From a virus (taxonomy: Duplodnaviria; Heunggongvirae; Uroviricota; Caudoviricetes): DNA of 64,000 bases. Shown piece by piece: positions 42,001-45,000 of this stretch. The first letter of the stretch is position 1, and each line of letters opens with the position of its first letter. The position numbers were made by a program. Location of the stretch: IMG/VR virus record IMGVR_UViG_646311923_000012; one strand, written 5' to 3'.

Positions 42001-45000
42001 CAAGCGAACGGGTTTCTGGATTGAGAGAGATCGTGACCCACCCTAACTACATAATCCTGTACAGAGTAGCTGCTTCAAGCATTGAGATTGTAAGCGTGAC
42101 ACATTCTCGGCGACAATTTCCCTTCTCTATCTGAGTTGAACAATTTTCATACTCCCTCTTTCGAGGGATTTTTTTGCCCAAAACAACAATTAAAAACTGT
42201 TGACACAAAACAGTTTTTAATTGTAGATTACATAAACCAACCACCCACCCCGCCCCACAGAACGCCGGGCAATACTTCGAGTTACCAAGCAGTGGTCAGG
42301 GGGTAAGTAGCCAGCCCGAGGCGTATGAACATGACGGCAGGGTTCAACTTTAATAACTATGCAGCAGGTTTTTGTTCCGCTACCCGGCGTTAAGGGGAAA
42401 TGAGGTCAACATGGATACTATCGATCTTGGCAACAACGAATCTCTGGTGTACGGCGTGTTTCCCAACCAGGACGGTACATTCACCGCGATGACGTATACC
42501 AAAAGCAAAACGTTTAAAACCGAAAATGGTGCCCGTCGCTGGCTGGAAAGAAACTCAGGTGAGTGATATGGATTTCGACACAATCATGGAAAAGGCTTAC
42601 GAAGAATACTTCGAAGGCCTTGCCGAAGGCGAGGAAGCTCTCAGCTTCAGTGAGTTTAAACAGGCGCTTTCCAGTTCGGCAAAATCTAACGACTAACGGA
42701 GTTAAAGATGGAATTTAAAGATTTACTAAAAGAAATCCAGGAAATTGCAGCACATGCACTTCACCAACGTCTGAACGAAGTTGAATTAGAATCTGCAACG
42801 AAGAAATACATTGATAATATGGCTCGTAATGTGCGCGATGCGTTTACCGGATTGTACTCTGTTTCGGTAACAAACAACCAGAATACTGAAGAAACTGCAA
42901 AGCGGATTGCCTCGGTGATGGGTTTTCATGTCGAGGAAAAGTATTCAAAAAAAGAATTCTGGAAAACTACAAAAAAATTGCAGAGCGAGAACTGTCATCT
43001 CCTGCGGCAATCGCTTCTTTCTATGAGGAAAGTTATTCAGATGACACAGGATTACCGGAACTGCTCTCATTACTTGAAAAATTCGGAATTATCATGAAAG
43101 GGACTGCGTCGGCGGATTTCACATACTCAATGATGGCTGCTGATGGAGAGCCTTTTCCTCCCGAACTTAAAATAACCCCCGGCAATCATCCGATGGTAAC
43201 AATAAGAGCAATAGAGAATTACTGGTTTAATCCAGTTCAACAATAGTTGGTCTTTGCAATATTTTTAATGGGCCACTACGCCCTTAATCTCGGGCGGCGT
43301 TTAACTCTTTATTCAGTAAATCAGACTGATACTGATTTGGCTTTGTAATGATACTGTCAAGTTTTGATATATGAAATTCAACATGTTCTGGACAGTTAAA
43401 AATGTAATAACCGCCCTTCTCTAAAAAGCCAGAAAGAGCGTTACAGGCAGGGCATGGTTTGTTTGGCATTTTATCCTCCATTAAGGGCTGAATTAAAAAT
43501 GGAGACCAACACGCTGCTACGTGTGGTCGTGCGCCGGACACAGATAAGAATCCGGCACTGACAGTTTACTGAAAGGATATATCCCTGAAAAGTCAGGGCA
43601 TAACACGAAAGTGCACGGCGAAGTCCTTCTCCCTTAGAGCCGTCGTTAAATTTAATTCGACCGTGCGCTTCCGGTTGTGGCAATCCGCGAAATGGCGCGG
43701 CGGTAAGTATGGCGGGGTTATTCTTTCCCCGTTGAGGACACCGGGTTGTCAGGTTGACCATACGCTTAAGTGACAACCCCGCTGCAACGCCCTCTGTTAT
43801 CAATATTCTGGTGACATTTGGCGGTATCAGTTTTACTCCGTGACTGCTCTGCCGCCCTTTTTTAAAAGTGAATTTTGTGATGCGGTGAATGCGGCTCAGC
43901 GCACGCGGAACAGTTAAATCGGTAAAGCGGTCATTTGCTGAGTAACGAGAATGCTCTGTATCCGGCGTTAATTGTTAACTGGTTAACGTCACCTGGAGGC
44001 ACCAGGCACCGCATCACAAAATTCATTGTTGAGGACGCGATAATGGAAAAGTTATCATGTAATGCCAGCACGTCTGAACTTCGTTTCGAAATTGGCGTTA
44101 TCACTGGAGACAAAACATTTATTGAAGACGCCATTAAGCAGAGAAAACTCGAGCAGGACCTGTTAAATGAAGTATGCATTCCTTCAATGCTGGCTCGTCT
44201 GGACCTGCTGCAAAAAGGATATAAACAATGAATACAACATTTGCACTCGTTCTGACAGTTTATCTTGTTTCCGGCGAATCTCTTGAGCTGGTGACTGGCT
44301 TATACGGTTCAATGAAAGAATGCATGGCTGCAGCAGCAGAACAAAAAATTCCCGGTAACTGTTATCCGGTAGATAAAACTACTCACACTAATAATAACGA
44401 AATACCGGCAGGACTTTAAAACAGCACCGTAATTAATATCCGGTTTCATTTTTATATGCCAGCAATGGCAGGGATTTGTTCACCCTTAAATCTGTAATGA
44501 GGTTAAAACACAATGAGTAAAATCTTTATTTGCGCTGCTATTCCTGACGAACAGGCCATAAAAGAAGATAGCGCTGTTGCGGTGGCCACTGCCATTGAAG
44601 CCGGTGATGAGCGTCGCGCACGCGCAAAATTTCACTGGCAATTTCTGGAGCAATTCCCGGCAGCTCAGGACTGCGCTTATAAATTTATTGTCTGCGAGGA
44701 TAAACCCGGCATACCCCGCCCTGCCCTCGATTCCTGGGATACCGAATATATGCAGGAAAACCGCTGGGATGAGGAGTCAGCTTCCTTTGTACCGGTCGAA
44801 CCAGAATCCGATCCGATGAACGTCAATTTTGACAAGCTGTCCCCTGAAGTACAGAACGCAGTCCTGGTTAAATTCGACACATGCGAAAACATCACCGTTG
44901 ATATGGTGATTAGCGCACAGGAATTACTACAGGAAGACATGGCAACATTCGGCGGACATATCGTTGAAGCGTTGATGAAAATGCCAGAAGTTAACGCCAT

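Follow-up and report, generated by a model that had tools for sequence, protein, structure and literature searches.

A one-nucleotide deletion in an A run as the probable origin of the split reading frame of ECs_1063, an early-operon gene of an Sp4-type prophage of Escherichia coli O157:H7

Does a gene whose coding sequence passes from one reading frame into another yield two products by design, or is it the remnant of a longer gene? The question is raised by ECs_1063 (WP_000394511.1), located in a 64,000-nucleotide (nt) stretch of DNA from IMG/VR virus record IMGVR_UViG_646311923_000012 (Caudoviricetes), here called the window. The region holding the gene is the early operon of an Sp4-type lambdoid prophage of Escherichia coli O157:H7; it is 100% identical to the Sakai sequence (NC_002695.2), within the feature annotated there as 'prophage Sp4'. 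A preliminary description located a change to the −1 frame at an A7 run (A_AAA_AAA, 42947–42953) and considered a homopolymer indel, a sequencing error, and a programmed −1 frameshift with products of 129 and about 179 amino acids (aa). The run is present, the open reading frame (ORF) of 129 aa (42708–43097, + strand) ends with a TGA stop at 43095–43097, 144 nt past the run, and both product lengths are correct. The −1 frame contains 118 open codons, from 42890 to the stop at 43244–43246. A7 runs as such are not unusual in the window (25 matches against 15.7 ± 5.2 expected), hence it is homology, rather than the presence of a run, that carries the case.

The 179-aa fusion of the two frames matches single-frame proteins of 177–186 aa from E. 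coli and Salmonella (P0001–P0009), with coverage of 98–100% and E values from 8e-98 to 7e-58; uninterrupted orthologs thus span both frames, and the coding-like appearance of the −1 frame is real. The intact orthologs read ...YSKKEFWKTTKK|IAERELSS... at the junction and ...EEKYSKKEFWKTTKK-IAERELSSPAAI... across two A7 runs of the window, the second of which lies at 42971–42977. They follow frame 0 of the window past the first run and for eight codons more (EFWKTTKK), and then its −1 frame. Between the runs, all 13 aligned intact orthologs keep frame 0 (EFWKTTKK or EFWKIAKR, never RILENYKK), and all 13 enter the downstream frame at the second run. Alignment at the DNA level with four intact genes (L002, L004, L005, and L006) contains a single gap in 540 columns, formed by A7 of the window against A8 of the orthologs at 42971–42977; at the first run, the intact genes have A7 as well (GA6 in one). 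The break is therefore found at a mononucleotide run whose length in intact orthologs differs by one, and with one A added in silico at 42971–42977 the translation matches database entry P0140 at every residue.

The two runs are separated by 17 nt and have the same A_AAA_AAA phase; with two equivalent slippery runs so close together, only the ortholog comparison tells which of them holds the break. This comparison of A7 with A8, proposed in the preliminary description, upholds the kind of event, a −1 break at an A7 run that has one more A in orthologs, and moves its place by 24 nt, from 42947–42953 to the second run. In the 186-aa family of E. coli and Salmonella there is no A run at the second position, AKR or ARA being found instead of TKK, and an intact 186-aa gene fills the same operon slot (dicA-ydfA-ydfB-X-dicB) in an O139:H1 genome. 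In alignment A3 of nine intact orthologs, 81 columns along the protein are invariant, and the C-terminal half contributes many of these; the C-terminal remnant of the window shares many invariant columns with the 186-aa family. The C-terminal domain is thus strongly conserved among intact orthologs, hence a real domain, which the allele of the window does not encode in frame.

The frame break is very probably a fixed deletion from A8 to A7 at 42971–42977, that is, an ordinary inherited frameshift mutation that removed the conserved C-terminal domain from the product; of the explanations first considered, it is the homopolymer indel that is borne out, at the second run. The ancestor would have been a protein of 179 aa, composed of an N-terminal helical module and the conserved C-terminal domain, and its coding sequence would have contained an A7 run followed, 17 nt further, by an A8 run. 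Loss of one A from the latter, most likely by replication slippage, would have left A7 at 42971–42977, so that after Lys90 ribosomes now read 39 out-of-frame codons up to TGA and yield the 129-aa protein without the C-terminal domain, the function of which would be lost. The mutation is inherited with the prophage and essentially fixed in the lineage, and it seems to have spread with the prophage into O157:H7, O103:H2, O121:H19, O111:H11, and other strains. A basal leak, in which about 0.4% of ribosomes shift by −1 on A_AAA_AAA or RNA polymerase adds an A, would probably recreate the full-length protein; nothing indicates that such a leak is programmed or selected.

Population data show the same allele throughout. 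An 88-nt query covering both runs finds 385 matching genomes among 5426 complete E. coli genomes, the match being exact in 383, and its A8 version has no exact match among complete E. coli genomes. A7 is found in 385 of the 385 genomes carrying the allele, including the two non-identical ones, which bear the unrelated substitutions T42957C (F84L) and A43029T; the latter is a stop when read in frame 0 and E108V when read in the −1 frame. In locus L009 (O157:H7 strain 1130), with the equivalent of A43029T, RefSeq sets a pseudogene flag with the remark 'internal stop'; the E108V change is also seen in P0144, the only A8 entry from O157:H7. The protein collection has the exact 129-aa product on at least 1000 contigs, and two of its single-substitution variants on at least 1000 and on 287, whereas in the same background A8 is seen on three contigs (P0140 and P0144) and A6 on one (P0011). 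A7 is hence a real allele; it is rather the rare entries with A8 (from O111:H11 CVM9534 and from the O157:H7 isolate behind GHJ75517.1) or A6 that are likely to be errors or sporadic mutants.

The C-terminal domain is present in 411 complete genomes, comprising the 385 of the A7 lineage, which share at least 99% identity over 751 nt, one at 90–95% identity, and 25 at 60–80%; the one inspected genome of the last group has an intact 186-aa gene in the dicA-ydfA-ydfB-X-dicB slot. All four genomes inspected for the surroundings of the A7 allele (O157:H7, O103:H2, O121:H19, and a pig isolate) have it in one and the same early region, most of whose proteins are identical, and in the O103:H2 and pig-isolate genomes, the two in which the attachment end was seen, yccA adjoins the prophage. 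This distribution points to one disseminated prophage rather than to independent retention of the frame break.

Within the A7 lineage, substitutions affect positions that do not vary among the nine intact orthologs of alignment A3: A15E, A15V, Q11H, F84L, E108V, F126I/V, and R163M. A15E is present on at least 1000 contigs, and R163M is lineage-wide, although one further intact ortholog has Lys at position 163. Occurring in both halves of the protein, these substitutions suggest relaxed constraint, the numbers being small and the evidence anecdotal.

Several observations weigh against a simple deletion. In public data, copies with the frameshift are far more numerous than intact ones; the downstream frame is free of stop codons over 269 nt in the frameshifted copies examined; the heptamer at 42971–42977 is in the correct phase for −1 slippage; and a weak hairpin begins 5 nt downstream of it. 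If the trans-frame product mattered, a dominant allele and an open downstream frame are what one would expect as well. However, sampling is dominated by Shiga toxin-producing E. coli, and the allele is young, as indicated by the near-identity of the 385 genomes, so that decay is not yet expected and the open frame carries little weight.

Among the alternatives, adaptive truncation or splitting of the gene, which we consider unlikely, would mean that the deletion was retained owing to a benefit of the N-terminal module by itself or to harm done to the lysogen by the full-length protein, and that reinitiation at ATGA might yield the last 50 residues as a second polypeptide. Consistent with this, the N-terminal part of about 55 residues occurs in several families with unrelated C-termini and matches phrog_9419, a profile only 64 positions long; A8 is very rare in the same background (three contigs); the A7-containing 3' part is also joined to a different N-terminal variant (P0129); and the frame-0 stop overlaps the in-frame ATG of the remnant as ATGA (43094–43097). 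Such a stop/start overlap is the classic layout for termination–reinitiation, and the 50-aa ORF is represented as a separate protein (P0154) on 659 contigs. On the other hand, no sequence resembling a Shine–Dalgarno (SD) motif is seen upstream of the ATG at 43094, the invariant N-terminal residues are replaced in the A7 lineage too (A15E, Q11H, A15V), and neutral hitch-hiking on a successful prophage would make A8 just as rare. The peptide predicted for the remnant, or for a trans-frame product, is ELSSPAAIASFYEESYSDDTGLPELLSLLEK.

Somewhat less probable still, and in our view quite unlikely, is that A7 represents a 'leaky off' state under selection, with the N-terminal module as the main product and traces of the C-terminal domain supplied by rare −1 slippage on A_AAA_AAA, by transcriptional slippage, or by reinitiation at ATGA. 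If this were true, the leaky state would tune an early-operon protein whose full-strength expression harms the lysogen.

The N-terminal module of about 55 residues (MEFKDLPKEIQEIAAH...NVRDAFTGLY; 42708–42870, + strand) is by itself joined to at least four unrelated C-terminal parts, its partners including the 212-aa 'Ybl81' family and families of 125 and 129 aa (P0019, P0048, P0052, and P0129). In P0129, found on nine contigs, the A7-frameshifted 3' half follows a different N-terminal variant. Together, the shuffling of the module and the structure of P0129 point to recombination inside the gene.

Programmed recoding is very unlikely. It would imply that a functional share of ribosomes shifts by −1 at 42971–42977, or that the polymerase inserts an A, so that the proteins of 129 and 179 aa are made in a set ratio, as for dnaX or transposases of the IS3 family of insertion sequences (IS). 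The site does have the form X_XXY_YYZ, A_AAA_AAA with its first base at codon position 3; the −1 frame is intact for 90 codons past it; and A7 is the dominant allele. Moreover, some IS elements use A_AAA_AAA, with an efficiency of 25% given a strong pseudoknot (PMC4066793). In an E. coli reporter, however, AAAAAAA yields 0.405% without a stimulator, 0.82% with the stimulators of IS911, and 24.8% only with the IS3 pseudoknot (PMC4066793, Table S3), and no stimulator stands out here. The downstream RNA has a folding energy of −14.6 kcal/mol (z = −0.52; z = −0.24 in a second fold test), no better than shuffled sequences, pseudoknots not having been included in the search, and no SD-like motif is seen by eye 6–17 nt upstream of the site (42954–42965, GAATTCTGGAAA). 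An efficiency of about 0.4% is accordingly to be expected without a stimulator.

Neither the break nor the slippery site is conserved among diverged relatives: every diverged ortholog is single-frame, and in the 186-aa family the second run does not exist. That orthologs have one uninterrupted frame with one more A is what the preliminary description had named as evidence of a simple mutation or error rather than of programming. For bacterial transcriptional slippage, runs of nine have been described (PMC5009743), and the A7 run is shorter. ECs_1063 is also not among the prophage candidates with conserved motifs reported in PMC4066793, where it is noted that A7 is depleted in E. coli genes whatever the frame, perhaps owing to transcriptional slippage and high indel rates.

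That the shift occurs at the first A7 run, as originally placed, is hardly credible. This run, too, has the A_AAA_AAA phase, no stop interrupts the −1 frame across it, and GAGG is found 10 nt upstream, the same spacing as in dnaX. The orthologs, however, have the same A7 there (or GA6) and all continue with EFWK... in frame 0, and one A added in silico at this run gives RILENYKK, found in no ortholog, with identity to P0001 dropping from 168 to 162 of 179 positions. An error of sequencing or assembly, the real genome having A8, is excluded for practical purposes: homopolymers are error-prone and the few entries P0140, P0144 (A8), and P0011 (A6) do differ in run length, but A7 is the same in complete genomes from many laboratories and platforms, the Sakai reference among them, and its product is present on more than 2000 contigs.

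Compared with known systems, ECs_1063 is an instance of a truncated gene of the homopolymer-indel class. Pseudogenes and truncated alleles of this kind in bacterial prophages have the same one-base change of a run, intact orthologs at run length plus one, the same out-of-frame tail with a premature stop, and clonal inheritance with the element; all these features are found here, and there is no essential difference, except that RefSeq lacks a pseudogene flag. Genes with programmed −1 frameshifting (dnaX, orfAB of the IS3 family, the tail chaperone G/GT) share with it a phased slippery heptamer and a longer trans-frame product; they differ in the stimulator, in the conservation of the site, and in efficiency, several percent to 50% against about 0.4% expected for ECs_1063. 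'Savior' or compensated indels, such as that in the G7 run of herpes simplex thymidine kinase (PMC5009743), are similar in that a homopolymer indel might be compensated by rare slippage on the same run; in ECs_1063, in contrast, there is no evidence that a residual full-length product is made or matters. Phase-variable contingency genes likewise have a homopolymer in the coding sequence and more than one tract length in databases. Their ON and OFF lengths are both common in close isolates, whereas here the lengths are unmixed, A8 and A6 together occurring on about four contigs of thousands.

The protein restored in silico gives only sub-threshold noise in profile searches against Pfam, NCBIfam, PADLOC, and PDB, and in PHROGs it matches only families without known function (PHROGs 1363 and 2151). 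PHROG 1363 matches the frameshifted 129-aa protein over its full length, tail included, with a higher score than the restored protein. The AlphaFold2 model built on nine orthologs is poor, with a mean predicted local distance difference test (pLDDT) of 50.6 and a predicted template modelling score (pTM) of 0.34. Among deposited phage genomes the C-terminal domain is not found, the only matches being N-terminal, with 34% identity, in Shiga toxin (Stx) phages. YdfC of E. coli K-12 was considered as a relative, as it occupies the same operon slot, but its sequence is unrelated. A literature search for ECs1063 and ECs1062 retrieved no paper with either tag, the hits being unrelated strings Z1331 and Z1332.

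The chief value of the result is for annotation. In every record inspected, ECs_1063/WP_000394511.1 looks intact in RefSeq, being annotated as an ordinary hypothetical protein without a pseudogene flag, although one third of it is an out-of-frame tail and the ancestral protein, with its conserved C-terminal domain, would have had 179 aa. The biological weight is small, as the deletion is of a routine homopolymer kind and the prophage gene that it affects is an orphan.

The features of the locus are listed in Table 1. The full-length DicF match downstream of ECs_1063 confirms an early operon of Qin/dicB type, in which ECs_1063 is an accessory gene occupying a variable slot, with ydfB on one side and the DicF small RNA (sRNA) on the other. 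Since the operon is of dicB type and the gene lies in this slot, downstream of the DicA-like repressor, its earlier designation as an early-left gene is fair.

Table 1. Features of ECs_1063 and of the surrounding early operon (positions in the window; HTH, helix-turn-helix)
Feature	Position	Strand	Remarks
DicA-like HTH repressor	41227–41628	+	
relB/relE	between DicA-like repressor and DUF1391 (ydfA-like) gene	+	
DUF1391 (ydfA-like) gene	after relB/relE	+	
ydfB	directly before ECs_1063 in operon order	+	
ECs_1063 / WP_000394511.1, frame-0 ORF	42708–43097	+	129 aa, 'hypothetical protein'
Native part of the 129-aa product	residues 1–90		boundary from ortholog alignment
First A7 run	42947–42953	+	read in frame 0 as Ser-Lys-Lys; kept in intact orthologs; not the break site
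Second A7 run	42971–42977	+	ACA AAA AAA TTG, A_AAA_AAA in frame-0 phase; actual site of the 1-nt deletion
Out-of-frame tail (LQSENCHLL...NSELS)	residues 91–129		boundary from ortholog alignment
C-terminal domain remnant (IAERELSS...WFNPVQQ)	42978–43246	+	ancestral residues 91–179; at present −1 with respect to the frame of the start codon
50-aa ORF (MKGTASADF...) within the remnant	43094–43246	+	separate gene in some genome records
DicF sRNA	43806–43857	+	Rfam RF00039, 77 bits, full length
dicB, DUF1482 gene, large exonuclease, integrase	downstream of DicF, in that order	+	

The relB/relE-parE type II toxin–antitoxin pair (41656–42134, + strand), located between the DicA-like repressor and the ydfA-like gene, is absent from the matching operon of K-12 Qin and from that of the O139:H1 locus L010. 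Between ECs_1063 and DicF lies ECs_1061, encoding a Cys-containing protein (CPAC...CPEH) of 61 aa at 43284–43469 on the minus strand. At the loci with intact genes, an 80-aa ORF on the minus strand overlaps the 3' end of the gene by 20 nt.

A scan of the A7 and A8 runs of the window for breaks between two frames flagged both A7 runs of ECs_1063 and position 12998 on the plus strand. The latter signal is spurious, the long ORFs there being only on the minus strand. Five A8/T8 runs are present at 29861–29868, 31859–31866, 32180–32187, and 35581–35588 (+) and at 39149–39156 (−), and the simple two-frame scan flagged no frame break at any of them. Finally, two abutting minus-strand ORFs of 143 and 137 aa (12738–13609) are located directly upstream of an 859-aa tape-measure-like gene (10178–12757). 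Genes of a tail assembly chaperone G/GT pair, in which a true programmed −1 frameshift is normally employed, would be expected to have this layout, and the two ORFs are a candidate for such a pair.

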